45,561 bases of DNA from Candidatus Woesearchaeota archaeon. Lineage in GTDB: Archaea > Nanobdellota > Nanobdellia > SCGC-AAA011-G17 > PNOQ01. This document shows positions 9,313 through 32,140 of this stretch, one piece after another. The translations under genes were made by a program, and so were the position numbers. Under the pieces are notes generated by a model. The model made no database searches. It saw nothing but the letters and a program-made list of their open reading frames with translations, and was not told the DNA's origin. Location: assembly GCA_043812195.1 (NCBI GenBank), contig JBDRML010000017.1, positions 1-45,561 on the forward strand, written 5' to 3'. Every line of letters begins with the position of its first letter. The first letter of the stretch is position 1.

Positions 9313-9329
9313 TCTACTATTTTTTTAAT

Positions 9330-9676: not shown

Positions 9677-9717
9677 TTATAGAAAGATTTAAATAGGTTA
9701 AAGAAATAGCATAATCC

Positions 9718-10146: not shown

Positions 10147-10585
10147 GGAAATCAGAAAAAAATTCGAAGTAATAGAAAAAAGAATTAGTATACTTGAAGG
10201 GTCATCTAAAAAAGAAGATATAATTCTTCAAGAAAAATCACCTGATGAAATCTTTGAAGAACATGATGGAAAAATTGTTATAACCAAAATTACTGGAGAA
10301 ACTCCTAAAGAAAAAGCAAAAAATATTGTCTTATTAAGTTTACTGGGATACAAACAAAAATTAGGAGAATTAGATGTTCATGCTTCTAAACTACGTGAGA
10401 ATGTTGCTATTCATCAAATTCCTTTAGAAAATTTTGGGACATGGGTAAAAGAATTAAGTCCTCGATCAGTTATGAAAAAAGGTAAGAGAGGGAGTACAAA
10501 AATTACATACAAACTAACTACTTTTGGGGAAGCAAAAGCTAAAAATTTATTAAAAGAGATACTTGCAAATGGAAAAACAGAATGA
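10139..10585 (+). CDS. Winged-helix-like protein
   Basis: C-terminal YKLTTFGEAKA wing motif; overlaps both neighbours (operon). Confidence 0.6.
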   Translation: MDEEIRKKFEVIEKRISILEGSSKKEDIILQEKSPDEIFEEHDGKIVITKITGETPKEKAKNIVLLSLLGYKQKLGELDVHASKLRENVAIHQIPLENFGTWVKELSPRSVMKKGKRGSTKITYKLTTFGEAKAKNLLKEILANGKTE

Positions 10586-11336: not shown

Positions 11337-11342
11337 CCTCAT

Positions 11343-11429
11343 TCATTTCAAACTTTTCCCAATAATTTTCTACTCTTCTTTGGTTATTCCATAAATCTTG
11401 TAAACTTCTTGGTCTATTTCATCATCTAT
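11343..11429 (-). pseudogene. C-terminal remnant of a type IIG/TaqI-like RM gene
   Basis: Translates [27 protein letters not shown], resembling the IDxxVYxLYGLTxEExxII terminus of such enzymes, with an internal stop. Confidence 0.6.
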
Positions 11430-13947
11430 TTTTTATGAATTCTTCGGTAGTGATAATTGTATCATATCCTCCAACTTGCTCAACTTTATGTTTGTATATT
11501 CCAGTGTAAGAAAGACTAGATTCTTCATATCTTTTGAACTTAAATACTGCATCATTCATCAGATTGCTGTTGAATACTCCAAGACTTACCAATAATTCAA
11601 AATCTTTTACTTTCAATCCTGTAACTTTTTTAAACAAGCCAGGTTCAAGTTTTGTAATAACATCTTTTAATGTTCTTTCTCTATAATCTGTTAAGTACAT
11701 GAAGATTGGGATTCTGGTCGCAAATTTGATAAGTTTCTTTTGTATTTCTTTTCTCTTACTCATATATTCTCTTTCTTCGTCTGATAATTTCTTCTTTTTC
11801 TTTGGAGAAATATTTTCATCATTGGCAAGTTTTTGTTTGGCCTTTTTTACAGATTCTGACTTATTGATAATTAGTTCTATATCCCTATTCAAACTTCTGA
11901 ATCCTTCAATACTCATCAGTGCTTCCATAGCCCTAGGATTGTTTAATATTTTGTTTAAGGTACCATTGTCTACATTAACCAATAATGCGCTTTCCCATCT
12001 TCTTGCAAGCAATGAAGCTGTTGTTCCACTCATAGCCATCTCAATTATTCCAGAAGCATCAATCTGTTTCATAGTACTTCCATCATAGGCAAGAACCGGG
12101 AGAAAATCAATGAATTCCTTGATCTTTTTTTCTGAATCTGTTTCCTCAGGATTTAGATTACAGCTATAATCTGCTATTTGCTTCAATGCCCTATTTGGTG
12201 CAAAATCAAAAATGTAGCATTCCCTCTTGATTATCTCTTCAGCATTTGGCGATTTTCCGTCTGGGTTCTTTACTGTCCATGGAGATTGTACCCTAAATGC
12301 TGCTTGAAAATAAGTTTCTGGACTTGTAAGATTTCTAAGCATGAGAATTCCTGTCCAAGGCTTCACAGTTACACCCGTCGTTAATTTTCCACATGATAAA
12401 GTAATTGATTTACTCTTCAATGGCTCTTCCATTGCCTTTTGAACAGGTTTTAATGCATCCAAACCAATACCTGCGCTTGCACCAGCAGCGACAACAATAT
12501 TGTAATCATGATAATATTTGTTCTGCTTCTGCATCAATAAGTTTTTCATAGCATGGCAAGAAGCAACATTAGGCATGAACCATATTGTATGGGATAATAT
12601 ATTTAACAATCTTGCATCTGAATAAGGTAAGGGTGGTTTTTTAGCCCCTAATTTGAGATTATCAAGATTTGATGCCAAATAATTTCCACGTATTAAGTCA
12701 AGCCATTTTTGAACATCATCTTCATAAACAAATTTTGCATTTTTTCCCTCACCTTTAGCAGAGAAAAATACATTTAAGTCAAATGTATCAAACTCTCCAC
12801 CACTAGCAAGATTTATGACTGAATGTGGTAACTGATATGTTAACAAAACTATTCTTGGAAGCGGTTCGTAAGGATTATTGGGTTTTTTCCAGTTTTCTTT
12901 TGCTCTTTGCTCATCAGAATAAGTCCAATGGTATATCTGTTCCTCAATAAATTCTCCCGAAATTATCGCTCTAAAAGGAGTTCCTGATAAGTAAAGATAT
13001 GCGCCTGTTTTTATGGGCATTATGCTTTCTAAATATTCAACTTTATCTTCTTCTTCAGGCCCTTTAGATGTCTCCTCTTCATATTCTTTATCTTCTATGA
13101 TAATCTCTTTTTCCTCATCAAACAAGTTCTTTGCCAATTCTCTCCAAGCACCATAATGGTATTCATCAAAAATAATACAATCCCATTTTGTTTTGTGAAC
13201 CCATTCATTTTTTGTTTTAATGCCACCTAAAGAGTTTCTTCCTAAATAATCCTGAAAAGAGCCAAAGCATATTATTGGCTTTTTCTGTTTTAATTTTTTA
13301 TAATCTAGATCTGAATGTCTGGAGAAAAACTGCCAACCTTCAAAATCCACATGATTTGATATATCTTCTTCCCATGCACTTTCAACAGCTGGCTTGAATG
13401 TCAATACTAGAATCTTTTTCCAACCCATTTTCTTTGCTAGTTGATATGCTGCAAAAGTCTTTCCAAATCTCATTTTACAATTCCACAAAAAATGAGGGGT
13501 CTTTTTTTCTTCCTTAAAACTAGAGAAGTATTCAGAGGCTCTTCTTACAGCTTCAATCTGCTCAGGCCTCATTTTAAAGTTTAGAGTTCTGTTATCTTCA
13601 TTTATAATTCCTGTTTTGAGTGCTAAAACTGTTGCTTTAACTTGCTCGACAGAGCATGCAAACCATTCTCCACCTCTACCTTTAACGCCTTTCTTAATAA
13701 GAAGCCTATGGACTGCATGATCATCAAAATAAGTGCCATCTTTTCTCATGGCAGATTCTTCAAAAACAATCTTATATGGGGGATTGCCTGGTCTTTTCGT
13801 AGGATATTGCTCTGCTACTCTTTTTTTAACATCAACTGTGGTATAACCTATTTTTAATAAGCCTTCATAAGACTTATCAGTATATGCGTAAATCTTAGGA
13901 CTCAAGTCTGGCTTTGGAGGAAAAAATTCCTTAATCTTCACTTTCAT
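11422..13947 (-). CDS. Restriction subunit: T5orf172/GIY-YIG-like nuclease + ResIII-type SF2 helicase
   Basis: IYAY...LKIGYT...V..R..EQ...GEWF N-terminus; CKMRFGKT Walker [18 protein letters not shown]. Confidence 0.85.
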
Positions 13948-15505
13948 CAGGTATTTCCTCTTCTGGAGTTTCCGAAGTATTTGGTTTTATCATAGTTTCA
14001 ATAAAATTAATCTCTTCTTTTGTTAGCTTGTATTTTTTGTAGAGTTCTTTATCTGTCCAAGGCTTTGAAAAGTCTTGCATAGGAACGAAAGCATATGCAT
14101 TTTTCATGGTATTTTGGGTTATCTTACCAAGAGAAGTCATCATATGAAAAAATTTAGTCTGCATATAACTTACTACATTTTCAGATGTTTTCTTATTATC
14201 AAAAGGACCTATAACCAAATATGTTTCCGTACAACATGAATTTGGTTCTGCTAAAAAAGGATTTATCCAATCGGTTCTTAAATTCCCAATTCCCCATGCT
14301 TTTGGAATTAATATTTTATATCTGTTAATCCAACCAATATTCTTCTTTAGGTAGGATTTGTCAATATATCCAATACCTTCTTTCCTCCAACCATTATAAT
14401 AAAACAAAACACTATTTGCAGAAGGTTCTAACTTAAAATCAGGTTTTACTCTTTTGTAGCTATTCTCAACTCTAACATCAAATCCAAAAGGATCATTTGC
14501 ACTAATTAGTTCTGAAAAACTGTTTTCTTTGTAGTTTTGAACTTTCCTTAATATAGGAATTGCTTGGTTGTACCTAATGAAAGTATTTGCTCCCTTTTCT
14601 AATAATGGCCTTTCAGATTCCGAAAGGATAGTATCCGCTTCATGGGTGAATACTTTGCATTTACCTCTGTTGTCTCTATCCCACAGAAAATAACAAACCC
14701 CTCCTTTTATTTCAACACCTGGAAAACAATCTCCTGCATTAGGGTAATCATGAAGAATCCTTATTCTATCATCTTTTAACATATTATCTCTGAATTCATC
14801 AAGACCCCTTCCTCCACTGAACCAACGAGCAGGAATAATCATTGTTAAGAACCTTGGACTAAGTTTCTTTGCCTGCAAAACAAATTTATCATATATAGGT
14901 ATAGCACTTGTACCCATTCCTCCTCCATCATTTAGCTGATAAGGTGGATTCCCTATTATTACGTCGAATTTCATTTTGAATATTTCCTCCGGTTTATTTG
15001 TGTGAATGAACTCATAAGCGTGAGATTCCAATTCATCTCCTCGGTCATAAACTTCCTGGCTTGCTCCACAGTATTTGCATCTTCCATTTTCCCAAATGTG
15101 ATTAATATTACTAAACTTAATATTGCCGTCCTTGTTTTTAAATTCTGTGGAAACTGAGTATTTACCATTAGCTGTTTTTGAACAATATAATGACCTGCGA
15201 GACACCAAAGCTGTTAATTCTGTTATTGCTATTCCATATAATTGGTTATTTACTATATGATTTATTCTTTTCTGTTTGTCTGGAATCTGTTTTTCTAGTC
15301 CTTTATTGAGCCTCTTCGCTATTTCTCTCAGGAAAATTCCTGTTTTCGAGACAGGATCTAAAAATTTGGCATTTTTATCAGACCAAAGTTCTTTGGGTAA
15401 TAAATACAGCATTTCATTAACAATTTTAGGCGGCGTGAATACTTCGTCGTTGCTTAAACTCGCAAGACAGGTCAATATGTCTGGATTATAATCAATCTTA
15501 TTCAT
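13931..15505 (-). CDS. Eco57I-like N6-adenine DNA methyltransferase with target-recognition region
   Basis: [18 protein letters not shown] (motif I variant), [10 protein letters not shown] (motif IV), IIPARW. Confidence 0.9.
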
Positions 15506-16160
15506 TATCAGCTAACTCCATATAGTTGATGATTGGATGATCTTTATGCACATTGGGCAATATAACTCTTTCGCCGGTATCGCTATCTGTTGTGAAACTC
15601 CACAAAAGAGTAGGACTAAAAATATCTTTGAAAGAATATTCTTTTCTTTTAATCTTTGAATCATTATAGGGCATTGACCATTCCGAGAAAATTAAAGGTT
15701 TGCCTTTGGTATCTTTCATTGTTAAGGCATCACCGCATATAATATTTTTACTTAATATAAATTTCAAAACCTTAACATATTTATTGTTGATTTCATGTTT
15801 GAAGATAGCGATATATTCTTTTTCAAAGATTTCAAGCAAGCGATCTCTGCATTCTTTAACGTTATCTTCAAGTAAATCAATTCCATATAAACTGGAAATA
15901 ACTATGACTCCATATTTCTCATATTCTGGCTGGCTTTTTTGGTATTTTTGTTTTAAAACAGCTAACTTTCTATTTAATACTTCAACTAAAAAATTTCCCG
16001 TCCCGCAAGCAGGTTCTAGAAATCTTGAATCTAATCGTTCTGTCTCATTCTTCACTAAGTCGAGCATCCCATTTACTTCACGTTCATGAGTAAAAACTTC
16101 GCCATGGTTCATTACCCTATGCTTAGATTTTATTTGATTGTTTGAATTAATTTTAGTCAT
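15498..16160 (-). CDS. SAM-binding methyltransferase-like subunit lacking NPPY
   Basis: [37 protein letters not shown]; no catalytic motif IV. Confidence 0.8.
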
Positions 16161-16221
16161 GATTATTAATCTCCTTTGAAAACATTTTTTCTAATTATTT
16201 CTTTTCCCTGCTCTTTCGTTA

Positions 16222-19200
16222 TCATTTTATACTCACTTTAATCTCATTCCAATCTTGAATAATATCTTTACTACTTTTCCATAAATTGTTGAATTGAGCC
16301 AGAAGATTTTCTCTGTTATTGCTTTTTGAAATTTCACTTAGTTGCCCTCTTACCATAACATCCGGAGAAGGAATGTTATATGCTTCATACTTGCTAACAA
16401 TAAATCTATCATGAATAGAGGATTTTATTTTAGAGTCTATTATAACTTTAAGCTCACAAGCTATTCCTTTATTAGACATTTCTTCTCTAAAATCCTTGAA
16501 AACAGATCTGAAATTTTCATCTGCTTTTTCTATCGACATCACAATTTTGATTTCTTTTATTTTTTTATTGACTGACTCAGAAAGTAGTTCTAAGCCTTTC
16601 TTTGAGAAATATTTATCCACCCAATAAATATAGCCTTCGCATTTGTTTAAAGTATTCAAAAAGATTAATTTGTTTGTGAATGGACTTTCGGGAGTTATTA
16701 AAGTTTTTTCTACCTCAGAATTGGTGTATCCAACTAACTCTTTTATTTTTGATAAAACTAAATCATTTCTTTCTGATAAAAATTCTTCAAAATTATTTTC
16801 CAATAAACAATCATAAGCTTTCTTATTAACAAAGTGTGTTGTTAATATCTTAGTAAACTTACTTTCTTCTCCATCATATTTATCCTTAATAAACTCTTTA
16901 ACATAAACAGATGGATTTTTGTATCTTTTTATTTTTCTGTTAGTTTCATCTGACATCCAGGTCATATTTAAGATGGAATTGATGTATTTGTTAGAACCAA
17001 ATCCAAATTTAAACGATTTAGGGAATATATGATCTTTATCATTATTTCTTGCATTTTCTAAGGTTTGAGAAGTATCGAAATCTTTGGCACCTTCAAGAGC
17101 AATTAACGACATTATCCCTCTATACTTTGCATTTGATTGTGATTGTATCTCCTTGAAATATAAATTTGGAAGTTCCCTGTGCATTTGTGTTATTATTCTA
17201 GGAGTTTCATTATTATTTTCGAACCATTTTCTTAAATCTCTAAAATCTGTAGTCATCTGGGTATCAGCAGCTTGAGAAAAAGCATTTGTGAAAACCGCAG
17301 ACCAATACCATTGGGTTAATTTTCTATAACATTCCGCTTTATTTTCTTGAGAATCTACCAATTTTAACAGGGCAGTTAATACTGGGATCGTGGGTGTAAA
17401 AGGAAGTTCTCCTTCATCCTTAACACCAAATCCATCCCTCATGTTTTCTAATTTTTCTATTGCTTTATCCATATATTCTGAAAGATCATCCCAATCCTCT
17501 TCAAAATCTCTGTCAGATTCTTCATAAATATTGGAATAAATATCAAGGATATCTTTTCTCTTACATGAACTATTTTTTTCGTATAATAATGATAAAGCTT
17601 GAAGAATGTAGATTGGCATTTTAGATATACTTTTTGAATATCTAAGAATATTTGGATAGTTTTTTAATGTGGCATCCCACATCTTCTTTAATTCAATATT
17701 GTACTTATACAACCGAGCAATTAACAAATCAAATACGCTGAGTAATTTTCCTTTGGTATTTATGCTTTCAAATATATCTGTAACTTGATCTAACTGCATA
17801 CTTTCGGGAAGTGCAACATAAGGTATTTCAAATCCTTCCCACATATGTCTCAGTTTTTTGTCTATAACCCTTCTTATTTTTCTGACTTTCTCAGAATTTT
17901 CAGATTGTTTTAAAAGAAATTCTTCAAATTCATTTACCCATTCTTCATATTTTTCTAACTGATAAAGAGGAAATAGCATCTTCTTGAATGATTCTTCTTC
18001 TGAAAGCTTTCTAGCATGAACTTCTATTATTCCATTCTTAGAATTTTTATTAAAATATGAATTAAAATTGACATAATAATATAATTGCTCTTTACTGCCC
18101 TTTAGAGGAAATTTTGGGGCTTTAATAACATAATATAATGAAGTTATTCTTTGTTGTCCGTCTAAGATTATGGAATCTGGTTTAAGCTCTTCTTCAGTTT
18201 TCGCCACACCCAATATCGGTTGGATACCTAATTCAGGACTTCTATCCGTTTCCCATAATAAGAATGAACCAACATAATAATCATTAAATATTGATTCCCA
18301 AAACTCTTTAACATTTATCTTGTTCCAATCAAAATATCTTTGAAAGTGGGGCAATACCCATTTTGCTTTAGAAGCATTATATATGATCTGATTTATTTTA
18401 ATTCTTTGTGGATCTCCAAGAGAATGTGGTATAAAATCAAACTCTTTTTCTAAATTAGTATTCTCTACAAATTCTCTAAAATTTACTTCTTCAGATTTAA
18501 CCTCGTCTTCCTGTTCAATAATATTTTCTCCTTCTTCAGTTTCTTCTTTAATAGTTCTTCTTTCTTCACTTAATATTTCAGAATCGTACCACCAGCAAAA
18601 TAAATCTAGGTAATCTTGTTTTTTAAGAATGTCTTCCCCTAGGTCTCCTACAAATTCTTTTAATTTTTTAATATTATCTGGATATTCATTTAATTTTTGA
18701 GATAATTTTTCATTCTTTCCAAAAATAATAGTTATGTTCCTATACGACCTTATAGTCCTATTATTTACAACTGGATATAAATCATTCAAACAAAATAAAA
18801 TCGGTGTAATAGATCCACATTGCAATCTTCTACTATACTTATCTTTAGTAAAGTTTTCAATTAATTCAGGTAATTTTTTAGGATCTTTTTGAAAGTTTCT
18901 ACATAAATCAAATATTTTGTTAGCCAATAGATTCCATTCTTCATCTGAATAATTATAATCTTTAAAAAATAATTTAATGTTCATAAATGATGGAAATAAA
19001 CTTACTCTCTTTGCAACTTTGGTTTTTGAATATGGGAGGAGGCCATATAAAACCCATTCTGTAAATTCTGGGCTTTTATTATTCATTCCAGAAAGTTTTT
19101 TTAGTATTTCTTGGACTTCTACTTTTTCTTTTACCATAGTCTCAAGATGTTCTTTAGCTTCACTTGTTTGAAGATACTCTTTGAATTGAGCTAATACATC

Positions 19201-19233
19201 TTTAATTTTCTGTTTTGTATTATCCATTATCAT
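16222..19233 (-). CDS. GmrSD-like (DUF262 + HNH-like) type IV restriction protein with extra N-terminal and PLD-like C-terminal domains
   Basis: LPHFQRYFDW, ILDGQQRITSL, IFESINTKGKLLSVFDL (DUF262); DHIFP...N...N; VDKYF...IHDRFI in the C-terminal domain. Confidence 0.8.
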   Translation of the reverse strand: MIMDNTKQKIKDVLAQFKEYLQTSEAKEHLETMVKEKVEVQEILKKLSGMNNKSPEFTEWVLYGLLPYSKTKVAKRVSLFPSFMNIKLFFKDYNYSDEEWNLLANKIFDLCRNFQKDPKKLPELIENFTKDKYSRRLQCGSITPILFCLNDLYPVVNNRTIRSYRNITIIFGKNEKLSQKLNEYPDNIKKLKEFVGDLGEDILKKQDYLDLFCWWYDSEILSEERRTIKEETEEGENIIEQEDEVKSEEVNFREFVENTNLEKEFDFIPHSLGDPQRIKINQIIYNASKAKWVLPHFQRYFDWNKINVKEFWESIFNDYYVGSFLLWETDRSPELGIQPILGVAKTEEELKPDSIILDGQQRITSLYYVIKAPKFPLKGSKEQLYYYVNFNSYFNKNSKNGIIEVHARKLSEEESFKKMLFPLYQLEKYEEWVNEFEEFLLKQSENSEKVRKIRRVIDKKLRHMWEGFEIPYVALPESMQLDQVTDIFESINTKGKLLSVFDLLIARLYKYNIELKKMWDATLKNYPNILRYSKSISKMPIYILQALSLLYEKNSSCKRKDILDIYSNIYEESDRDFEEDWDDLSEYMDKAIEKLENMRDGFGVKDEGELPFTPTIPVLTALLKLVDSQENKAECYRKLTQWYWSAVFTNAFSQAADTQMTTDFRDLRKWFENNNETPRIITQMHRELPNLYFKEIQSQSNAKYRGIMSLIALEGAKDFDTSQTLENARNNDKDHIFPKSFKFGFGSNKYINSILNMTWMSDETNRKIKRYKNPSVYVKEFIKDKYDGEESKFTKILTTHFVNKKAYDCLLENNFEEFLSERNDLVLSKIKELVGYTNSEVEKTLITPESPFTNKLIFLNTLNKCEGYIYWVDKYFSKKGLELLSESVNKKIKEIKIVMSIEKADENFRSVFKDFREEMSNKGIACELKVIIDSKIKSSIHDRFIVSKYEAYNIPSPDVMVRGQLSEISKSNNRENLLAQFNNLWKSSKDIIQDWNEIKVSIK

Positions 19234-19376
19234 TTCCTCTCACTCTTCCTCGGCGTATTCCAGTAAGGTGATTTGCATTTTGGGCAGACTTTTGGCTCTT
19301 CTGTTGTAGTTTCCCGAGGAACCCATTTATGACTGCAACGTTCGCAAACATAGCCTTCTAATTTAATCTTTCCCAT
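19230..19376 (-). CDS. 48-aa Zn-ribbon protein, not in the ORF track
   Basis: Manual translation MGKIKLEGYVCERCSHKWVPRETTTEEPKVCPKCKSPYWNTPRKSERK*; homologous to 22152-22352; ATGA-coupled to the DUF262 gene. Confidence 0.85.
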   Translation of the reverse strand: MGKIKLEGYVCERCSHKWVPRETTTEEPKVCPKCKSPYWNTPRKSERK

Positions 19377-19474
19377 ATTGAATAGTTATATCCTCTTTAG
19401 TATATAAGTTTTACTATCTTACTAACCGAAGGGTTTAAATACTTAATAGTATATTACTAAGAGGTATATAGGTA

Positions 19475-20686
19475 ATGCTCATGAAACAACCGCAACCTTT
19501 CAGGAAAAAGAAAAGACTCTCAGATAAAAACCTTTCTCTTAATCGAAAAATCAGAGGATATGCTATTCTAGCAAAAGGCGATATGCCAATAGCAGTAAGC
19601 GAAGAAGAGTTTTTAGTGCCTTCACAAAGCTCTGATAAGAAGTATAAAGTAACAAATATCTCTGGATGGAACTGCGAATGCCAGGACTTTCAAAACAGGC
19701 ATAGTGACTGTAAGCACATTCATGCAATTAAACTTTGGATTAAGTTAAGAGCAAAACCAGAGATAGAAGAATTAAACATAGATACAAATGAAGAAAAATG
19801 CATCTACTGCAATTCTTTAAACGTTGTAAAGAATGGCTCAAGAAAAACAGCAATAGAAAACAAGCAAAGATTCAAATGCAAGGATTGCAAGAAAAGATTT
19901 GTTCTTGATCCTGTAAAGAGAATTAAAGGCAATGGAAAAATTGTGACTTTAGCAATGGATTTGTATTTCAAAGGATTATCATTAAGAGATATTTCTGACA
20001 CATTATTCCAATTCTATAATTTGAGAGTGCATTTTGATACAATTAGAAGATGGATTAGCAAATACACTCAAATCATGGATGACTACACGAAAGATTTCAA
20101 GCCAGAATTAAGCGATAAATGGCATATTGATGAACAAATGATTAAATCAAAAAAAGATTATATCTGGTGCTGGAATGTCCTAGACAGCGAAACAAGATTT
20201 TTGATAGCAAATAATGTAACACGAGGCAGAGAAATTAAGGATGCAAGAGCAGTATTAAAGATAGCAAAAGAAAACATTAAGGAAAATCCCAAAGAGATTG
20301 TAACTGATGGATTATGGTCTTATACAAGAGCAATTAAGAAAGAATTTGTTACAAAAAGAACAAGTCCCAATGCTGTTCTCCATTCCAGAAATGCTGGAAT
20401 AGCAAAGAAACTTCTTAACAATAATATGGTTGAACGTTATCATAATGAGTTTAGGGAATTTGACAAAGTGAGAAGAGGATTTAAGTCAGATGAAACAGCA
20501 CAGCAATGGAGTGATGCTTTTAGGCTTTATCACAACTTCATTAAGAAGCACATGGCTCTCAATGGAGCAACACCTTCTCAAGTAGCAGAAATTGATATTG
20601 ATTTAGGCAGAAACAGATGGCTAAGCTTACTCAAACAAAGCCTTAATCACCCGAATACGACAAAAAAGGAGGTAATATTAAAATGA
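19475..20686 (+). CDS. IS6-family-like DDE transposase with N-terminal SWIM finger and Zn ribbon
   Basis: CECQDF...CKHIH (SWIM), CIYC...VKNG...QRFKCKDC, WHIDE, IVTDG, NNMVERYH, FKS. Confidence 0.88.
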   Translation: MLMKQPQPFRKKKRLSDKNLSLNRKIRGYAILAKGDMPIAVSEEEFLVPSQSSDKKYKVTNISGWNCECQDFQNRHSDCKHIHAIKLWIKLRAKPEIEELNIDTNEEKCIYCNSLNVVKNGSRKTAIENKQRFKCKDCKKRFVLDPVKRIKGNGKIVTLAMDLYFKGLSLRDISDTLFQFYNLRVHFDTIRRWISKYTQIMDDYTKDFKPELSDKWHIDEQMIKSKKDYIWCWNVLDSETRFLIANNVTRGREIKDARAVLKIAKENIKENPKEIVTDGLWSYTRAIKKEFVTKRTSPNAVLHSRNAGIAKKLLNNNMVERYHNEFREFDKVRRGFKSDETAQQWSDAFRLYHNFIKKHMALNGATPSQVAEIDIDLGRNRWLSLLKQSLNHPNTTKKEVILK

Positions 20687-20740
20687 CCCTTTAATACGAC
20701 AGAGAGTGATAAGGGCTTTGCCCGATAACCCTATGAAAAG

Positions 20741-21997
20741 TTAGACATTTCGGGCAGTTATTTGACTATTAGGGCAAAAGTTACTTTCTAAGCCTAGTTC
20801 GTTCATTTCCATTATAACACAGCAAATATTATGGGCAATGATCTTGCACAATACTTCATTAACTTGTGCTGTCCATAATTTGCTTCTTACTCTATCTCCA
20901 AACTTGCTTTTAATCATGTGTACTGTGGTTTCTGCGTTGCTTCTTGCGTGATAGTGCTGTAAGTATTCTTCATTGTTTAACATGAAGAAATGATACATTT
21001 TCTTCCATATCATTCCATTTCCAGAGCCCTTGCTATTGCTCTTGAAAGGCACATAGAAAGTTCCACCTAAACTATTTACTAATTCAAAGTTATCTTTACT
21101 CAAATATGCCTTATCTCCTGATAGTTCTTCCATGTTAAAATATTTGGCTGTGTCTTGAGCCATTTCTTTAAGCTGTGGGCAATCTGCATCATTTTCAGTA
21201 GTTATTTTTACAGATGTTATGATGTTGCTTTTTGCTCCATTTACAAAATGACATTTAACCCACCTTCTTGAACAAATCTCTTTTCCATGCTTGAAGCTAT
21301 ACCATCTTTGAAAGTTGCTTGTGCCAAATCCTGTACTGTCAATATTAAATTTGGTTTCTGCTGTTCTTAATGGAAGGCTTGTTAACATTACCATCTTAGC
21401 TAATATTGGCGTTAATTCTGGCTTCTTGAAATAGTCAAACATAGTATTGTAAGGAACTTTGCTTTCAATAAATCCTTTCTCTAAAGCCCAATTCATATCA
21501 GTAGCAAACCTTCTTCCTGAAAAAGTTGAGTAGGTCTTGAAAACCATGGCAAAAATATTATCTCCTAAATTAGATCTTGGTCTGCCATAAGTGTAAGCAG
21601 GTTGTCTTATTCTTGAAGTTATATCTGCCAATAATTCCATTAGCTTTTCTTTTTCTGTTTGCTGTGAAATATTGTAAGACTTCCAATTCTGAGGGTAAGT
21701 TTTCTTTACAGTTTGAGTTATTACAGTATTGCCTTCCTTGTCTATTTCTTCTTTTAGAGTATATTCTACTGCGTGAATATGTTTGCATTTACATTTTCTT
21801 AATTCATAATCAGGACAATTACATTCTTTCTTATCGTATCTTACTTTTACTAGATACTTGCCTTTGTTAAATTGGCTTGGTACTTCATAACCCCTATCAG
21901 TTCTCCTTATCCTGTATTTCTGGGCAATTAACTTCCCTCTTTGTTCTCTTGTTAAATTCCTAAAGTTTTGCTCGGTTATTTGTTCCATTTTTATCAA
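20741..21997 (-). CDS. IS5/IS903-like DDE transposase with N-terminal SWIM finger
   Basis: CNCPDY...CKHIH (SWIM), IDSTGF, GDKAY, YHARSNAET. Confidence 0.88.
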   Translation of the reverse strand: MIKMEQITEQNFRNLTREQRGKLIAQKYRIRRTDRGYEVPSQFNKGKYLVKVRYDKKECNCPDYELRKCKCKHIHAVEYTLKEEIDKEGNTVITQTVKKTYPQNWKSYNISQQTEKEKLMELLADITSRIRQPAYTYGRPRSNLGDNIFAMVFKTYSTFSGRRFATDMNWALEKGFIESKVPYNTMFDYFKKPELTPILAKMVMLTSLPLRTAETKFNIDSTGFGTSNFQRWYSFKHGKEICSRRWVKCHFVNGAKSNIITSVKITTENDADCPQLKEMAQDTAKYFNMEELSGDKAYLSKDNFELVNSLGGTFYVPFKSNSKGSGNGMIWKKMYHFFMLNNEEYLQHYHARSNAETTVHMIKSKFGDRVRSKLWTAQVNEVLCKIIAHNICCVIMEMNELGLESNFCPNSQITARNV

Positions 21998-22151
21998 CTC
22001 CTGTACAACTCATTATTATATTAATAGGTATATACTATCTACTATATAAACATTGTTGTTCTGTATTATATAGATAAGATATCATTAGTAATATATTAAG
22101 AAGCACATAATACAAATATTTATATATTGTCTTAACATTACCTTTATTAAT

Positions 22152-22352
22152 ATGAACGATTCAAAAGAAAATATGGCTAAAAAAAAGGAACATGGAGCTA
22201 ATGTTGATTTGATTGGCAATAAGTGTTATCGTTGTGAGCATGAGTGGCTTCCCTATGATAAAGATGTTTTGCCAAGAGTATGCCCTAAATGTAAATCACC
22301 TTATTGGGACAGACCAAAAGTAAGGTTTAATAAAAAAGGTGGAGGAAAATGA
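22152..22352 (+). CDS. Small Zn-ribbon protein
   Basis: CYRCEHEWLP...PRVCPKCKSPYW; divergent from the transposase. Confidence 0.85.
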   Translation: MNDSKENMAKKKEHGANVDLIGNKCYRCEHEWLPYDKDVLPRVCPKCKSPYWDRPKVRFNKKGGGK

Positions 22353-22427
22353 GTCAATCTAAGGGGCTTTTACAGGTAGTCTTTTTCTACGAAAAAGAAA
22401 ATTGACAAAAAATTTAAAAACCGATAC

Positions 22428-22445
22428 ATATATATATATATATAT
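22428..22445. repeat. (AT)9 microsatellite in the livK upstream region
   Basis: c-ATATATATATATATATAT-g read directly. Confidence 0.9.
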
Positions 22446-22478
22446 GATAATAATTAACAATTATAATTAACTAATGAT

Positions 22479-23630
22479 GTGCTTATGATGAAAAAACAAA
22501 ACAAAATTTATTTAACGATAGGAATTGTTGCCGTAGTTCTGATTGCAGCAATCATGATGTTCTCAACTCCAAAAGGAGAAAATGATAATTCAAATACAGT
22601 TAAAATTAGATTTACAGGACCGCTTTCTGGTGCCTTTGCATACTATGGAACGCAAGCACAAAAAGGGTTGAATTTAGCATTTGAAGATTATGATTACTTG
22701 CTTAATGAAAAAAATCTAGTTTTAGATATAAAATATGAAGATAATACGGGAGACAAAACAAAAGCAGTTACTGATTTTAATACTTTTTTGAGTGGGGATA
22801 ATGTTGCTTTGGTAATTTCAACAAATACCCCATTAAGTCAGCCCTTAATTCCTTTAGCTGAACAAAACAATATTAATTTACTTGCATTAATTACTGGAGC
22901 AAAGGATTTTGCCAAGGATACTAACTATGTTTTTAGAGATGCAATAATGTCTTATGATGAAGGAGTTTTATTAGGAAATTATTTTAATCAGCAAGATTAT
23001 AGTAATATTGCTACTTTGGTTGTTAATGATGATTATGGTTTAAGTGGAGCATTAGGAGTTAAAGATGAATTAGAAAAAAATGGTAAAACCATTGTAGCAG
23101 AAGAAGTTTTTGAAAATTCAGCCACAGACGTTAGAACTCAAATAAACAAGATAAAAGAAAAAAATCCTGATGCTATTTTCTTGGTGGGAAGAGAATCTAA
23201 TTTAATTATTGCAATACAACAAATGATTGAATTGGGAATCCCTCAAGAGAAAATCTTTTCTATTGACTCATTTGAATCTCCAACCGTACTAAATGGTTTA
23301 GATTCTTTAGCAAATGGAATAAAGATTACAAGTGTTTATTACGATTTGAATAATTTAAATACAAAAAAGTTTTTTGATGAGTTTAAAGAAAAATACGATG
23401 CTGATCCCGGGATTTATGCAATTGATGCTTATTCTGCAGGAGAATATATAATACAATCTGTAGTTGATTGCGGTACTTCCTCGGAACAAATAAATGATTG
23501 TTTCACAACTAAAGAATTTGAAACTATAAAAGGAAATATTTCATTTAATAATCTTCATGACATGAGCATTACAGTAGGACTTTTTGAAATAGAAAACAAA
23601 AGCAAAATACTCATTGAGAAATTAAAATGA
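22479..23630 (+). CDS. livK: Branched-chain amino acid ABC transporter substrate-binding protein
   Basis: N-terminal membrane anchor, GPLSGAFAYYG, YEDN, NDDYG, NPDAIF, TIKGNISF. Confidence 0.85.
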   Translation: MLMMKKQNKIYLTIGIVAVVLIAAIMMFSTPKGENDNSNTVKIRFTGPLSGAFAYYGTQAQKGLNLAFEDYDYLLNEKNLVLDIKYEDNTGDKTKAVTDFNTFLSGDNVALVISTNTPLSQPLIPLAEQNNINLLALITGAKDFAKDTNYVFRDAIMSYDEGVLLGNYFNQQDYSNIATLVVNDDYGLSGALGVKDELEKNGKTIVAEEVFENSATDVRTQINKIKEKNPDAIFLVGRESNLIIAIQQMIELGIPQEKIFSIDSFESPTVLNGLDSLANGIKITSVYYDLNNLNTKKFFDEFKEKYDADPGIYAIDAYSAGEYIIQSVVDCGTSSEQINDCFTTKEFETIKGNISFNNLHDMSITVGLFEIENKSKILIEKLK

Positions 23631-24613
23631 ATAATATTAATTTATTTTCTTCTTTTCTTAATATTCGGGACAGCATTTATGCAAATGATTTAATAATTTA
23701 TGGGCTTACAAAATCAGGAATTATTGATTTAATGAAAAAAGATCCCCCTGGAATTACTTTTCAAGAAATAGTTCGAAAATTAAAACTAAAACCTCGACCT
23801 CTTAAAGTTTTAATTGATCTTCTTGTAGCAATGAAATTTTTTGAATTAAAAAAGGATAAATATTTTTTAGATGAAGATTTTGAGAAGGGCGTGGTAAATT
23901 CTGGTTTAATATACTACTTAACTGAACTAAATCAAAGAGAATTTGTATTGGGATTTGAAAAAGTCTTTAAAACTGATGAACCTATTCCATACCCAAAAAG
24001 AAATCAAAAATGGGAAAAATCTCTTGACAATACTAAGTTTGTAAAAGAATTTAACAATACTATGAAAGTGAGAGGAGCCTTATTAGCAAAAGAATTATTT
24101 AAGAATATAAATTTAAACAAAAACAAGACGCTTTTACTTTTAGATATTGGTGGCAGTTCTGGAATTTATTCAAAAGAAGCAACATTAAAATTTAATAAAT
24201 TAAATGCAATAGTTCTCGATAAAAATACTGTCCTAAAAAAAACTATTAAAGGAAAGCGATTGAGATTTGAATGTTTGGACATGTTCACAGAGGGTTATCC
24301 TAATGCAGATCTACATTTATATTCTAATGTCCTTCATGATTGGAATGAAAAGGAAAATCTATTTTTACTAAAGAAAAGCTATAAATCATTACCAAAAAAA
24401 GGAAAAATAATAGTTCATGATGCTTTTTATGGAGCAAAAGCAAAAGAAGATATTTCCATACTTAGTTACTCGGCTTTGCTAATGTTACTTACCCATGGGA
24501 GATGCTACTCTATCGGAGAAATGAAAGAACTATTAGAAAAAGCAGGATTTAAGGGAATAATTTACAAGAAGACAATAGCAGGGAGAGGAGTAATAATCGG
24601 AGAAAAACACTAA
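23627..24613 (+). CDS. SAM-dependent O-methyltransferase (Methyltransf_2 with dimerisation wHTH)
   Basis: LLDIGGSSG, DMF, YSNVLHDW, LPKKGKIIVHD, LEKAGF. Confidence 0.85.
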   Translation: MNNINLFSSFLNIRDSIYANDLIIYGLTKSGIIDLMKKDPPGITFQEIVRKLKLKPRPLKVLIDLLVAMKFFELKKDKYFLDEDFEKGVVNSGLIYYLTELNQREFVLGFEKVFKTDEPIPYPKRNQKWEKSLDNTKFVKEFNNTMKVRGALLAKELFKNINLNKNKTLLLLDIGGSSGIYSKEATLKFNKLNAIVLDKNTVLKKTIKGKRLRFECLDMFTEGYPNADLHLYSNVLHDWNEKENLFLLKKSYKSLPKKGKIIVHDAFYGAKAKEDISILSYSALLMLLTHGRCYSIGEMKELLEKAGFKGIIYKKTIAGRGVIIGEKH

Positions 24614-24660
24614 ATTTATTAACTTCTTTTTTTATTTTATTTTTAAAGAGGTAAACTAAT

Positions 24661-25545
24661 ATGTCATCAATCGCATTTCAATTATTAATAGATGGTTTAA
24701 TAGCAGGAGCCATCTACGCTTTAGTCGCATCTGGTTTTTCTTTAATTTATTCTACAAACAAGTTTATTCATTTTGCACACGGAGCAGTAATTGCTTTTAG
24801 TGCTTATGTTTTGTATTTCTTGTTTTCTGTTTTGGGATTAAATTTTGGTTTTGCAGTTGCTTTAGCAATAGTTTTTGCTTCGTTGCTTGGCTATGGAATG
24901 AATATTGCAGTTTACAAACAACTAAGAAAAAAGAAAACTTCTTCCGTAATTCTTTTAATCGCGAGTGTCGGATTATTAATTTTATTAGAATCCTTAATTT
25001 TGCTCTTATTTGGTGCTGATGTTAAAACAATTGGTTTCATCAAAGTTGCAAAAGGAATGGAGTTTTTGGGAGCAATCATCACTCCCTTACAGATATTTAT
25101 CATAATTACTTCAATATTCCTTTTGGCAGGGCTTTTCCTCTTCATGAAAAAAACAAAGCTAGGAAAAGCAATGAGAGCCGTTTCTGATAATAAAGATGTA
25201 GCAGAGATTGTGGGCATTTCCTCAGAAAAGATTTATTCCTGGAGTTTTATTATTGGCTCGGCTGTTGCAGGAATAGCTGCAATATTAATAAGTTTAGAAC
25301 AAAATCTTGAACCAGTTATGGGAACAAATTTAATGATTAAAGGTTTTGCAGCTGCAATTATTGGAGGAATTGGTTCTGTTCATGGTGCTATCTTGGGTGC
25401 ATTTTTATTAGGGATAGTTGAAAACTTTGGTATTTGGTACTTGCCTTCTGGTTATAAAGATGCAATTGCATTCGTCTTATTATTCATATTCCTACTATTC
25501 AGACCGCAAGGAATTTTAGGGATTAAAAGGAGAAGTGAAAAATGA
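24661..25545 (+). CDS. livH: BCAA ABC transporter permease
   Basis: GAIYALVASGFSLIY...HFAHG, TKLGKAMRAVSDN, KGFAAAIIGGIGS, RPQGILG. Confidence 0.93.
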   Translation: MSSIAFQLLIDGLIAGAIYALVASGFSLIYSTNKFIHFAHGAVIAFSAYVLYFLFSVLGLNFGFAVALAIVFASLLGYGMNIAVYKQLRKKKTSSVILLIASVGLLILLESLILLLFGADVKTIGFIKVAKGMEFLGAIITPLQIFIIITSIFLLAGLFLFMKKTKLGKAMRAVSDNKDVAEIVGISSEKIYSWSFIIGSAVAGIAAILISLEQNLEPVMGTNLMIKGFAAAIIGGIGSVHGAILGAFLLGIVENFGIWYLPSGYKDAIAFVLLFIFLLFRPQGILGIKRRSEK

Positions 25546-26414
25546 TTGAAGCATATTTCATCCACTTAGCAATTTTGGTTGGAATTTATTTAATTCTTGC
25601 TTTATCTTTGCAATTAGCTTTAGGTTATACTGGATTAATAAATCTGGGACATATTGCTTTTTTTGCTATTGGTGCTTATGTTTCAGCATTGCTTACTTTA
25701 AATGGAATTCCTTTTATAATCGCTTTTTTGTTAGCAGGAATTATATCTGCAGGATTTGGATTTCTACTATCAATTCCAACAAATAAACTTAAAGGAGATT
25801 ATCTTGCTTTAGCAACTTTAGCTTTTACTTTTGTAGTATATGCAGTGACTTTAAACTGGACTTCTTTAACAAGAGGGCCTTTGGGTTTGCTTGGAATTCC
25901 AAAGCCTTCGATTTTTGGTTTGAGTTTCTCTTCAAATCTTAGTTTTCTAATCCTAACAATAATTATAGTTGTAGTAGTTTATTTCATAATAAAAAGAATA
26001 GTAGATTCTCAGTTTGGAAAAGTTATGGAAGCAACAAGAGATAATGAACTTGCAACACAAGTTTTAGGGAAAAACACGTTTAAAATCAAGTCAATTGTTT
26101 TAGCAACCTCTGCTTTTTTTGCAGGCTTAGCTGGAAGTTTATATGCTCATTACATAACTTACATTGATCCTTCATCTTTCACCATAATGCAATTAATTCC
26201 TATCTTATGTATTGTTATTATTGGGGGCTTAGCTTCATTAAGAGGAACAGTTATTGCAACTGTCATTTTAATCCTATTGCCTGAATCATTAAGGTTTATT
26301 GGCTTTCCTTCTTCAGTTATTGGTCCAATGAGACAAATCATTTATGCTTTAATATTATTAATCATATTACTATATAGGCCAAAAGGTTTTTTTGGCAAGG
26401 TGGAGTTAGAATAA
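25542..26414 (+). CDS. livM: BCAA ABC transporter permease
   Basis: GYTGLINLGHIAFFAIGAY, LKGDYLALATLAF, LTRGPLGL, RDNELA. Confidence 0.93.
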   Translation: MIEAYFIHLAILVGIYLILALSLQLALGYTGLINLGHIAFFAIGAYVSALLTLNGIPFIIAFLLAGIISAGFGFLLSIPTNKLKGDYLALATLAFTFVVYAVTLNWTSLTRGPLGLLGIPKPSIFGLSFSSNLSFLILTIIIVVVVYFIIKRIVDSQFGKVMEATRDNELATQVLGKNTFKIKSIVLATSAFFAGLAGSLYAHYITYIDPSSFTIMQLIPILCIVIIGGLASLRGTVIATVILILLPESLRFIGFPSSVIGPMRQIIYALILLIILLYRPKGFFGKVELE

Positions 26415-26415
26415 C

Positions 26416-27153
26416 ATGTTAAAAATACAAAACTTGTCAAAACATTTCGGAGGAGTAAAGGCAGTGGATAACTGTAGCTTTGAAGTCAAAGAAAATTATA
26501 TTACTGCACTTATTGGCCAAAATGGTTCTGGGAAATCAACAGTTTTTAATATTATTTCACAAGTTGTTGATGAAGATTCTGGTATAATTACATATGATAA
26601 ACAAAATATAACTCATTTTTCACCAGAACAAGTTTCAAATGCGGGAATCTCAAGGTTATTCCAAAAATCACAACTATTCTATAACTTAACAATTAAAGAA
26701 AATCTGCTTTTATCTTTAGATAATGAAGATACAAAATTTTGGAAAAATCTATTTGGAAAAAACAAAATAACAAAAGAGAAAGAGGAAAAAGTGAAAAAGG
26801 CTTTAGAATTAGTAGAAATGTATTCTTTTGCAAGTAAACTTGGAAGAGAATTAAGTTATGGACAAAAAAGACTTATTGAAATTGTAAGAACAATTCTTAA
26901 TCCTCATAAATTGTTAATGTTAGATGAACCAATTGCAGGAGTAACTCCAAAACTGAGAACGAAGATTTCAGAAATCTTACTAGGTCTAAAAAAACAAGGT
27001 GCAACAATACTGTTAATAGAACATGACATGAATTTTGCTTTAAACCTTGCTGATGAAGTTATTGTTTTAGATGAAGGAAGAGTTATTGCAAAAGGAACAC
27101 CTAATCAAATAAAGAACAATAAAAAAGTCTTAGGGGCTTATTTGGGAGAGTAA
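26416..27153 (+). CDS. livG: BCAA ABC transporter ATPase
   Basis: FGGVKAVD, GQNGSGKST, LSYGQKR, LDEP, IEHDM, AYLG. Confidence 0.93.
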   Translation: MLKIQNLSKHFGGVKAVDNCSFEVKENYITALIGQNGSGKSTVFNIISQVVDEDSGIITYDKQNITHFSPEQVSNAGISRLFQKSQLFYNLTIKENLLLSLDNEDTKFWKNLFGKNKITKEKEEKVKKALELVEMYSFASKLGRELSYGQKRLIEIVRTILNPHKLLMLDEPIAGVTPKLRTKISEILLGLKKQGATILLIEHDMNFALNLADEVIVLDEGRVIAKGTPNQIKNNKKVLGAYLGE

Positions 27154-27154
27154 T

Positions 27155-27859
27155 ATGCTACAAATTAAAGATTTAAAATCAGGCTATAATGAAATGGAAA
27201 TACTTCATGAGGCTGATATAGAAGTTAAACCAGGAGAAATTGTAGCAATTATTGGTCCTAATGGTAGTGGAAAATCAACACTTTTAAAAAGTATATTTAA
27301 TTTATGCAATATTTATTCAGGTAAGATAATTTGGAAAAATAAAAACATTACAAAATTAAAAACTCATGAAAAAATATTTGAAGGAATGTCTTATGTTCCT
27401 CAAGGAAGGCAAGTTTTTAGAGATTTAACTGTTCATGAAAATCTTGAAATGGGAGCTTTTATAATGAAAGACAAAGAATTAGTTAAAACTAATATTCAGG
27501 ATGTTTATGAAAAATTCCCCTTCTTAAAAGAAAAACGACATAAATATGCAGATACCCTATCTGGTGGACAACAACAAATGCTTTCAATAGGAAGGGCGTT
27601 AATTCAAAACCCCCAATTATTGTTATTAGACGAGCCTTCTCTTGGTTTGAGCCCAAAAGCAATGAAGGAAATATTTCAAAAAATAAAAGAAATCAATAAA
27701 GAAGGAGTTTCCGTAATAATTGTAGAACAAAACGCAAAACAGGCAGTTGAAATTGCAGATAAAACATATATTCTTGAAGATGGAAAAATCGCACTAACTG
27801 GTGGAAAAGAGATCTTGAAAAATCCAAAGATAAAAGACATCTATTTTGGTGGAAGATAA
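27155..27859 (+). CDS. livF: BCAA ABC transporter ATPase
   Basis: GPNGSGKST, YVPQGRQVF, LSGGQQQML, LDEPSLGLSP, VEQNA. Confidence 0.93.
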   Translation: MLQIKDLKSGYNEMEILHEADIEVKPGEIVAIIGPNGSGKSTLLKSIFNLCNIYSGKIIWKNKNITKLKTHEKIFEGMSYVPQGRQVFRDLTVHENLEMGAFIMKDKELVKTNIQDVYEKFPFLKEKRHKYADTLSGGQQQMLSIGRALIQNPQLLLLDEPSLGLSPKAMKEIFQKIKEINKEGVSVIIVEQNAKQAVEIADKTYILEDGKIALTGGKEILKNPKIKDIYFGGR

Positions 27860-28166
27860 TGTTCTTTTAGAAAAAGAACCAAAAGTAAAAGCCCCCTCTA
27901 TTTTCTTTTTTTAGAAAAAAGAAACCAAAAATCTGGACTCCCCCTCGTCCTTCGGACATATAGTCTCCTACGGAGAAATTTATTATCGTGAAAATTTAAC
28001 TCTTAATCGCAATGTTAAGCAAATTTTTCTTTGAGTTAAGATGGGTCTACTTTTCAGGCAGAACTAATACTTTTCAAGCAACCTTTACTTATCGTGGACT
28101 TATCGGGCAAAGCCAGTGATAAGCAAAAATATATAAATCATACCCAATTAACATTTTCGGTTATAA

Positions 28167-31176: not shown

Positions 31177-31350
31177 ATCTAAAATATAGAACAATTTGTT
31201 CTTTTTAAACCTTCTGATTTAATTGGCTTTGCACAATAAGTCTAGTCTACACAAAAACTAAAAGTTAGATAAATTAGTAAAAGGAAATCCTAATTATTTA
31301 GAAATAGTAAGTATAGATTTTTAAGGATAGGGGCAGAAAACTAGATTGGT

Positions 31351-32067: not shown

Positions 32068-32140
32068 CTTCCTTCACACCACTCACACATTACCTCTTTT
32101 TGCATAAATTTAAAAGTTATTAACCTTTTTATTATTTTCT

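Follow-up and report, generated by a model that had tools for sequence, protein, structure and literature searches.

Why do two transposase genes of different families, lying tail to tail, each stand back to back with a small zinc-ribbon gene that has further genes behind it? The question is raised by 3.1 kb (positions 19230-22352) of contig JBDRML010000017.1 from a Candidatus Woesearchaeota archaeon. The window analysed here is the whole stretch of 45,561 nucleotides, contig C17 of a 938-kb, 90% complete genome of a Woesearchaeota/Nanoarchaeia-like DPANN archaeon. The transposases are named TnpA and TnpB and the small genes ZnR1 and ZnR2 (ZnR for the family). The 3.1 kb proved to be two transposition cores that lie tail to tail between guaB and purA. 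The reading that we favour, and judge from the sequence to be probable although by no means certain, is that of two cargo-carrying unit transposons, Tn-A and Tn-B, with a ZnR core, ZnR being a putative DNA-binding regulator that leads the cargo. The host DNA has a G+C content of about 30% with BRE/TATA-like archaeal boxes in its intergenic regions, and the close relatives of TnpA and TnpB stand in records labelled Candidatus Woesearchaeota or Nanoarchaeia.

Two unit transposons between guaB and purA

The limits of both elements were set by terminal inverted repeats (TIRs) and target site duplications (TSDs), one end of each lying on the transposase (Tnp) side and the other on the cargo side.

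7745-20706: Tn-A, 12,962 bp, IS6-type TnpA, 11-kb restriction/defence cargo, 8-bp TSD TGATAAGC
7737-7744: left TSD copy of Tn-A, TGATAAGC, perfect 8 bp
20707-20713 plus base 28124: right TSD copy of Tn-A, TGATAAGC, split by the later Tn-B insertion
7745-7764, plus strand: cargo-side TIR of Tn-A, CTCTCTGTCGCATCTACGGG, 16/20 against the reverse complement of the Tnp-side end
20687-20706, minus strand: Tnp-side TIR of Tn-A, CTCTCTGTCGTATTAAAGGG (as read on the minus strand)
20714-28114: Tn-B, 7,401 bp, IS903-type TnpB, 9-bp TSD AGTGATAAG
20705-20713: left TSD copy of Tn-B, AGTGATAAG, its first two bases being the last two of Tn-A
28115-28123: right TSD copy of Tn-B, AGTGATAAG
20714-20729, plus strand: Tnp-side TIR of Tn-B, GGCTTTGCCCGATAAC
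28099-28114, minus strand: cargo-side TIR of Tn-B, GGCTTTGCCCGATAAG, one mismatch to the other end (15/16)

The TIRs and TSDs show that Tn-A and Tn-B each moved as one piece. The initial annotation, made from the sequence alone, had proposed single-transposase cargo transposons, and this is what was found: the TIRs and perfect TSDs enclose transposase, ZnR and cargo, and further copies carry other cargo. Since the target of Tn-B takes in the last two bases of Tn-A, Tn-B arrived second; its insertion point is exactly the outer tip of Tn-A (20705-20714). With both transposons removed about 85 nt are left between guaB, the IMPDH gene, and purA, which starts at 28167. The guaB open reading frame (ORF) as listed starts at 7807, and its likely start was put at about 7702 because the Pfam match begins only at residue 41.

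The ends of Tn-A recur elsewhere. In the whole genome 7745-7764 is the sole partner of the Tnp-side tip at up to 4 mismatches. Five metagenome copies match the cargo end with the DNA next to it (50 bp, 7745-7794) at 84-100% identity, and the Tnp-side tip (...ACGACAGAGAG) is common to 24 metagenome copies with 19 different flanks, as judged by reading. Moreover, the copy L014/G300 has 89% DNA identity to exactly 19227-20706, with a sharp break on each side. For Tn-B, a search with the tip gave 3 matches within the window against 0.07 expected by chance, and the TnpB-type tip (GGCTTTGCC...ATAA at 20714) was seen at six loci, two of them identical and hence with 5 different flanks. The similarity of the 98%-identical copy L184/G301 covers 20714-22357, stopping 5 nt beyond the ZnR2 stop.

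A search for inverted repeats between the ZnR side and the Tnp side came out empty because the second TIR lies past the cargo. Local inverted repeats joining the Tnp end to the ZnR end or to the intergenic region scored no better than shuffled sequences for the pairs in the window or for 15 of 17 others, and a 16-nt inverted repeat (19204-19219/22388-22403) was dropped for the same reason. In locus L094 (G221:C7) a 24-nt inverted repeat (19/24) at 3812-3835 and 5329-5352 links the ZnR-stop and Tnp-stop regions; it scores 28 against a shuffled maximum of 22, and its left arm starts at 3812, the similarity of the G221 copies having its limit at 3813. This repeat was set aside as a TIR because a GGCTTTG-type end with one mismatch was found 740 nt further out.

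A third IS903-type element of 1,170 bp lies at 31225-32394 in the window, with ends GGCTTTGCACAATAAG and GGCTTTGTACAATAA and flanked on both sides by ATTTAATT. It holds a gene with a VTT/DedA domain (31351-32067, minus strand). Of a TnpB-like transposase only decayed C-terminal pieces interrupted by stop codons are left, at 32123-32360, and the element looks like a dead cargo transposon.

The transposases and the zinc-ribbon protein

The cores consist of the following features.

19230-19376, minus strand: ZnR1, 48 aa, CxxC...CPKCKSPYW zinc ribbon with a basic tail, conserved in the Tn-A core
19377-19474: divergent promoter region of Tn-A, with an AGGTATA site and BRE/TATA-like boxes facing both ways
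19475-20686, plus strand: TnpA, 403 aa, SWIM domain at about 1-95, IS1-type Zn domain at 109-144, IS6-type DDE domain
20741-21997, minus strand: TnpB, 418 aa, SWIM domain at about 1-90, IS5/IS903-type DDE domain
21998-22151: divergent promoter region of Tn-B
22152-22352, plus strand: ZnR2, 66-aa zinc-ribbon paralogue, conserved in the Tn-B core

TnpA scores 130 bits with the NCBIfam model transpos_IS6 (NF033587), over the cut-off of 125, and matches Pfam DDE_Tnp_IS240 (PF13610, E 5.8e-18); its residues 109-144 form a Zn domain of the IS1/IS1595 type. TnpB matches Pfam DDE_Tnp_1 (PF01609, IS4/IS5-type) with E 5.4e-17 and 62.7 bits against a cut-off of 23, and reaches 110.9 bits with transpos_IS5_2 (NF033579), under the cut-off of 140 of this NCBIfam model. 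The SWIM domain (PF04434) of TnpB scores 21.4 bits, over the gathering threshold of 19.6; that of TnpA, at 61-84, stays under it with 17.5 bits, and its C67, C69, C79 and H81 are invariant among 34 homologues. That two unrelated DDE transposases share a homologous SWIM N-terminus, as first noted on inspection, was confirmed by alignment: the N-termini are 33% identical over 82 aa (pair E 8e-8), and TnpA and TnpB showed no similarity beyond the first 80-90 residues. We infer that the SWIM N-terminus stands as a domain of its own, acquired by both transposase families; it is presumably a DNA- or end-binding module and needs no ZnR. At NCBI SWIM-bearing relatives are named plainly 'IS1/IS6 family transposase'.

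SWIM-bearing IS903-type transposases with about 40% identity were also seen on three bacterial-labelled contigs. One of them (L200), a 1.13-Mb contig labelled Acidobacteriaceae, is without ZnR; in the other two (L195 and L196, labelled Bauldia and Acidobacteria) the transposase is accompanied by ZnR. These could represent a true spread into bacteria or mis-binned archaeal contigs.

ZnR1 shares 50% identity with ZnR2 over 40 aa (E 2e-14), and each of the two is divergent from its transposase gene, at a distance of 98 nt (ZnR1-TnpA) or 154 nt (ZnR2-TnpB). Each also shares its strand with the genes behind it. The ORF coordinates thus agree with two further statements of the initial annotation, namely that each transposase is divergent from a homologous small zinc-ribbon gene and that this gene heads the cargo.

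The ZnR family is large, with 5,087 clusters (at 90% identity) found at E 1e-3 or better, mostly unnamed; an Atlas search with ZnR likewise gave unnamed clusters only. By the curated cut-offs of Pfam and NCBIfam ZnR belongs to no named family. It falls below the cut-offs of Zn_ribbon_8/FmdB (PF09723, 21.6 bits vs 34.4; TIGR02605, 20 vs 31.3), ZnR2 gave no NCBIfam match, and no helix-turn-helix (HTH) family of Pfam or NCBIfam was matched. Some homologues bear the JGI labels 'predicted Zn-ribbon and HTH transcriptional regulator' or RpoP. Across 50 diverse members 15 positions are invariant, including four Cys, and His, Trp and Pro are also conserved; His16 is nearly invariant (>=90%) and the C-terminus is rich in Lys/Arg. 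The closest solved relative is the Zn ribbon of PF0610 (PDB 2gmg), at a profile match of E 0.0076. PF0610 of Pyrococcus furiosus combines a winged helix with a rubredoxin-like Zn ribbon and resembles ZnR in its second zinc knuckle (CPKCKS..W..PR); ZnR, in contrast, has no winged helix, and the match is weak and spans 36 residues.

Exchange of cargo at the ZnR stop codon

Four further copies of Tn-A and one further copy of Tn-B were found with both ends and perfect TSDs. They are listed with two related elements.

Tn-A copy L111: 2,702 bp, TSD CGTTCAAT, membrane/secreted-protein cargo
Tn-A copy L115: 3,487 bp, TSD CTATTTGG, membrane/secreted-protein cargo
Tn-A copy L117: 3,754 bp, TSD AGAAAAAG, M48 peptidase cargo
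Tn-A copy G300:C13: 9,733 bp, TSD AGCACAAG, N6_N4_Mtase methylase, helicase-like and DUF2779 cargo
Tn-B copy G301:C62: 8,209 bp, TSD GAATTTTAA, type III Mod, Res and DUF2779 cargo
L198, related element without ZnR: 3,401 bp, perfect 9-bp TSD, TrkH-like cargo by reading (family unconfirmed)
L205, miniature without ZnR: 57-772, 716 bp, perfect 9-bp TSD GGTTAGACC, both IS903-type ends

The cargo of G300:C13 reads as a type III-like restriction-modification (R-M) set, of which the methylase and DUF2779 are confirmed by Pfam. L205 keeps just the 3' end of the transposase gene and is a non-autonomous derivative. The five TSDs of Tn-A (window, L111, L115, L117 and G300:C13) have no shared consensus.

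The relatives have the same Tnp-ZnR core and both ends, with different cargo. Among the copies the cores are 84-95% identical in DNA, and the ZnR stop and the Tnp-side tip mark the limits of the similarity. ZnR1 is present in every full-length Tn-A copy and the similarity ends within about 20 nt of its stop; in G301:C62 TnpB is 98% identical and ZnR2 is the same, the cargo being unlike that of Tn-B in the window. In 17 of 22 anchored rows, compared by reading, the first cargo gene begins at -4 to +7 nt of the ZnR stop, frequently as an ATGA overlap, and copies of the ZnR2 type are alike in this. In the window the first cargo gene of Tn-A, encoding a GmrSD-like protein, overlaps the ZnR1 stop in this way. 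The first cargo genes are mutually unrelated: GmrSD, HsdM-like (three), type IIG-like (two), membrane proteins and unknowns. The heptamer ATGATAA (19227-19233 in the window), which combines the ZnR stop with the cargo start, is common to copies with unrelated genes downstream, and the similarity break falls just past it.

Such a junction would also be expected if ZnR had no trans-acting role and were a short leader ORF that delivers ribosomes to promoter-less cargo, an expression adaptor only. The tight coupling of the ZnR stop to the start of many unrelated first genes would suit such a leader, as would the common direction of ZnR and cargo in every TSD-verified copy having ZnR. A pure leader, however, would not keep 15 invariant residues, four Cys among them, in 50 homologues, nor would it form a family of 5,087 clusters, and we regard this explanation as very unlikely.

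Association of ZnR with transposases

The host genome contains four ZnR paralogues, all beside a transposase or an apparent remnant of one. On contig C12 the gene divergent from ZnR encodes a SWIM-less transposase of the IS6 type. The ZnR on contig C41 (31285-31759) has no intact transposase alongside; its 330-nt upstream region resembles, by eye and in one frame, a decayed N-terminal Zn finger of the IS6 type, which suggests a transposase remnant.

A profile built from these four paralogues was run on 301 genomes of the class of the host (the host family is represented there by 8 others, of other genera) and gave matches in 99 of them; the 88 matches with E about 1e-7 or better were carried forward. 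Tabulation of the neighbours of ZnR in archaeal genomes, which the initial annotation had called for, gave an IS6- or IS5-type transposase adjoining ZnR in 18 of the 30 ZnR-centred loci listed, divergent every time. When the same genomes were entered from the transposase side, a ZnR lay within 2 kb of 25 of 82 PF13610 (IS6-type) matches. One lay within 2.5 kb of 12 of the 150 PF01609 matches listed (29 more were unlisted). All 25 and all 12 are divergent, TnpB of the window being counted with its neighbour ZnR2. In the sampled class at least 37 of the 88 ZnR matches therefore adjoin a DDE transposase, always divergently, and the pairing is far above chance.

Among 60 transposase loci chosen by Pfam score alone, with ZnR ignored, a ZnR was present in 7 of the 13 loci whose transposase bears SWIM and in 7 of the 47 whose transposase does not; the loci counted are kin and not independent, and 2 of the 6 loci with SWIM and no ZnR have little upstream DNA. 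The enrichment of ZnR beside SWIM transposases that the initial annotation predicted was thus seen. On the other hand, only 3 of the 18 transposase partners in the ZnR-centred sample carry SWIM, and in a metagenome sample of 79 loci of TnpA relatives 70 had SWIM and 29 had ZnR (all 29 also with SWIM), which leaves 41 of 70 SWIM-bearing relatives without ZnR in the DNA available. ZnR and SWIM are therefore associated but separable, and the idea of a single zinc-ribbon/SWIM module finds no support here.

These counts also bear on the proposal that ZnR is a transposase cofactor, acting in targeting, end synapsis or immunity and docking on the SWIM/zinc-finger N-terminus. Its preference for SWIM-bearing transposases fits this, as does the N-terminal Zn domain carried by every ZnR-linked IS6-type partner examined, and the insertion of Tn-B exactly at the tip of Tn-A could be taken as a sign of targeting. 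However, 15 of the 18 partners in the ZnR-centred sample lack SWIM, the 41 SWIM-IS6 relatives do without ZnR, and the five Tn-A target duplications are without consensus. A complex prediction of ZnR with TnpA(1-150) scored 0.00 and speaks neither for nor against binding. We think it quite improbable that ZnR acts in this manner.

The initial annotation had further supposed that the module was swapped between DDE cores. For ZnR this stands in part, as it occurs with more than one DDE family and the tree needs at least a few partner switches. On the tree of 63 distinct ZnR sequences, which rests on 47 columns only and is poorly resolved, the DDE family of the partner changes 6 times. Shuffling gave 10.0 changes on average, and a number this low came up in 1 of 500 shuffles. 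One well-supported clade (SH-aLRT 97) mixes 4 IS5-type and 3 IS6-type partners. ZnR mostly keeps its partner lineage and has switched DDE family at least a few times.

The divergent promoter region and the proposed role of ZnR

Each transposon is built in the order TIR, DDE transposase, a stretch of about 100-150 nt that holds back-to-back archaeal promoters, ZnR, cargo operon and TIR. ZnR is predicted to be a small zinc-ribbon protein that has a basic tail and binds nucleic acids. We propose that it acts on the shared divergent promoter region, at a candidate operator resembling AGGTATACCT, and so would set the expression of the transposase, at the same time leading the cargo operon and coupling it translationally. 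Such a role would be comparable to TnpR repression in Tn3, to InsA of IS1 and to R-M controller proteins.

The candidate operator derives from a motif, A[AG]GTT?ATA, which is common to the ZnR-Tnp intergenic regions of both IS6- and IS5-type elements and often forms a near-palindrome resembling the sequence just given. Two or more sites are present in 14 of 22 ZnR-Tnp regions, against 2 of 28 regions upstream of ZnR-less transposases and 1 of 46 divergent intergenic regions of the host genome.

Several points weigh against this reading. The motif was derived and counted in the same, related sequences, which makes it a lead rather than a test; part of it coincides with Shine-Dalgarno-like and TATA-like sequence, and 5 of the 22 ZnR-Tnp regions have no site. 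DNA binding by ZnR is deduced from its sequence, and the AlphaFold2 model of the protein is weak (mean pLDDT 62.9). Many transposases manage without ZnR, including 57 of the 82 IS6-type matches, which have none nearby, and the 41 SWIM-bearing relatives mentioned above. In Tn-B of the window there is no tight junction, a 126-nt gap separating ZnR2 from the first cargo gene; an 18-codon remnant follows ZnR2 directly and the transporter operon begins 126 nt further on. The precise replacement of cargo at the ZnR stop finds no explanation in these data. Finally, no transposase accompanies 18 of the 63 distinct ZnR sequences, several of which stand in front of R-M genes.

Because of these last cases ZnR could functionally be cargo, a controller-like leader of R-M or defence operons and an archaeal zinc-ribbon analogue of the C proteins, picked up by transposons. 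Transposase-less ZnR heads genes for type IIG-like enzymes, Vsr with a restriction enzyme, and methylases (L006, L021, L027, L028 and L029), HsdM-like, type IIG-like and GmrSD genes have starts that overlap the ZnR stop, and the native N-terminus of the type IIG family, 'MITKEQ', coincides with the junction ATGATAA. Nevertheless ZnR is kept with the transposase as the cargo changes, also where it is not defensive (L111, L115, L117 and the transporter of Tn-B). Some solo ZnR genes are moreover transposon remnants: L006 retains 40 nt of the TnpA 5' end, L019 retains the TnpA 3' end and C41 the apparent decayed IS6 zinc-finger stretch, and these solos nest within the Tn-A clade of the ZnR tree. 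We hold a ZnR that is functionally cargo to be unlikely, and prefer the regulator that belongs to the transposon core.

Cargo genes

The genes between the ZnR and the cargo-side TIR of each transposon in the window are as follows.

7849-9312, plus strand: DUF2779 protein, 487 aa, Pfam E 3.6e-42 (Tn-A)
9718-10146, 10139-10585 and 10563-11336, plus strand: three small genes, no Pfam match (Tn-A)
11422-13947, minus strand: T5orf172 with ResIII helicase-type domain, 841 aa, E 9.4e-13 and 6.2e-8 (Tn-A)
13931-15505, minus strand: Eco57I-type DNA methylase, Pfam Eco57I E 1.1e-37 (Tn-A)
15498-16160, minus strand: MmeI_Mtase-like protein, 220 aa, Pfam E 3.5e-7 (Tn-A)
16222-19233, minus strand: GmrSD-like protein (DUF262), first cargo gene, 1003 aa, GmrSD_N E 5.7e-31 (Tn-A)
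22479-27859, plus strand: periplasmic binding protein, O-methyltransferase, two BPD_transp_2 permeases and two ABC ATPases (Tn-B)

The cargo of Tn-A is a type IV/type IIG-like defence island, and that of Tn-B a Liv-type ABC transporter plus an O-methyltransferase.

In three large transposons, which represent both families, a DUF2779 gene is the neighbour of the cargo-side TIR: Tn-A in the window, L207 (G300:C13, 9863-11329) and L208 (G301:C62, 7318-8766). The gene at 7849-9312 is 88% identical to its counterpart at that position in the Tn-A copy of G300, and this Tn-A pair is 51% identical to the Tn-B copy. DUF2779 has a weak match to the RNase_H superfamily; it may be restriction cargo or a second conserved module of the transposon.

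Comparison with known elements

Tn-A resembles the archaeal branch of the IS6/IS26 family in its DDE_Tnp_IS240 core, with transpos_IS6 over the cut-off, and in its 8-bp TSDs (5 of 5 complete copies). Its short TIRs have CTGTC at positions 5-9, which may be compared with the 'cTGTt' motif given in PMC7986276, and tips that are CT rather than GG. Tn-A differs in that TnpA has an N-terminal SWIM besides its Zn domain, and that a divergent ZnR and 1-11 kb of cargo lie within its own TIRs, with no pseudo-compound arrangement of IS, cargo and IS. The compact one-ORF format of IS6 (about 0.8-1.5 kb) is also exceeded by the Tn-A elements, at 2.7-13 kb. As far as their available parts go, the IS6 reviews (PMC7986276 and PMC6807381) describe HTH + DDE transposases, Zn-finger extensions in clostridial clades and pseudo-compound transposons. 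In PMC7986276 a single family member with a passenger gene, ISDsp3, is named and the word 'SWIM' does not occur; the review of Harmer & Hall (PMC6807381) states that many archaeal IS6 members do not begin with GG and doubts the place of archaeal members in the family. Because these reviews deal with pseudo-compound transposons and name one passenger-gene element, an IS6-type element with up to 11 kb of internal cargo appears unusual.

Tn-B resembles the IS903 group of IS5 in the DDE_Tnp_1 domain of TnpB, in its 9-bp TSDs (window, G301:C62, L198 and L205) and in its TIRs, which start GGCTTTG...ATAA and match at 15/16. A 9-bp target duplication is the value of IS903, and we take the TIR of Tn-B to resemble the IS903 inverted repeat. 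Unlike this group, TnpB has a SWIM N-terminus of about 90 aa, Tn-B encloses ZnR and 5-6 kb of cargo within its TIRs, and the transpos_IS5_2 score of TnpB, as given above, is under the cut-off of the model. The plasmid-borne IS5 relatives of TnpB have at most 23-27% identity and none of the 228 records covers the N-terminus.

In eukaryotic MULE/MuDR transposases and in FAR1/FHY3 the SWIM zinc finger (CxCxnCxH) is also fused to a DDE transposase. There it is C-terminal to a Mutator/IS256-like core, whereas here it is N-terminal to IS6- and IS5-type cores. The present fusions add prokaryotic cores of the IS6 and IS5 types to the SWIM-bearing DDE transposases known from eukaryotic MULEs.

The gene order brings to mind the Tn3 family, whose unit transposons are arranged as tnpA, res, tnpR and then cargo. 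Both have a transposase divergent from a small gene with a control region between them and cargo behind, in a unit bounded by TIRs. The transposases are however unrelated, the 48-aa zinc ribbon ZnR cannot be a resolvase, and no res site was identified. The C proteins of R-M systems are small HTH proteins and share with ZnR, a zinc ribbon, only the gene layout.

One transposase with passenger genes inside one TIR pair also agrees with the 'tIS', the ISfinder term for an insertion sequence with passenger genes that is defined in PMC7986276. The elements described here differ from it by a conserved accessory gene at the core/cargo junction and by cargo of up to 11 kb that is exchanged between near-identical elements. 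The suggestion of the initial annotation that this class was undescribed agrees with the papers searched, in which no description of a SWIM-IS6, a SWIM-IS5 or a zinc-ribbon accessory gene was found; ISfinder, TnCentral and supplements were outside this search. As far as searched, the architecture is present in databases and yet undescribed, and is kin to known IS6 and IS5/IS903 elements with passengers.

Significance

The vehicles that move genes among the tiny-genome DPANN archaea are poorly known. Here a defence island and an ABC transporter, each a whole functional block, are carried by two complete, TSD-verified unit transposons that belong to two DDE families. The fixed position of ZnR at the core/cargo junction gives a large unnamed family its first testable role, and the ZnR gene can serve as a simple annotation marker for locating such transposons.

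It is conceivable, although we regard it as doubtful, that ZnR and the divergent promoter together form a portable 'cargo adaptor' of archaeal transposons, with the stop codon as the preferred junction. If this were true, almost any gene or operon would come under the control of the transposon by translational coupling, and near-identical cores with different DDE families would swap defence islands, transporters and other cassettes. These elements would then be nearer to an integron-like or Tn3-like platform for gene capture than to an insertion sequence, and would be among the main vehicles by which genes flow in DPANN archaea.

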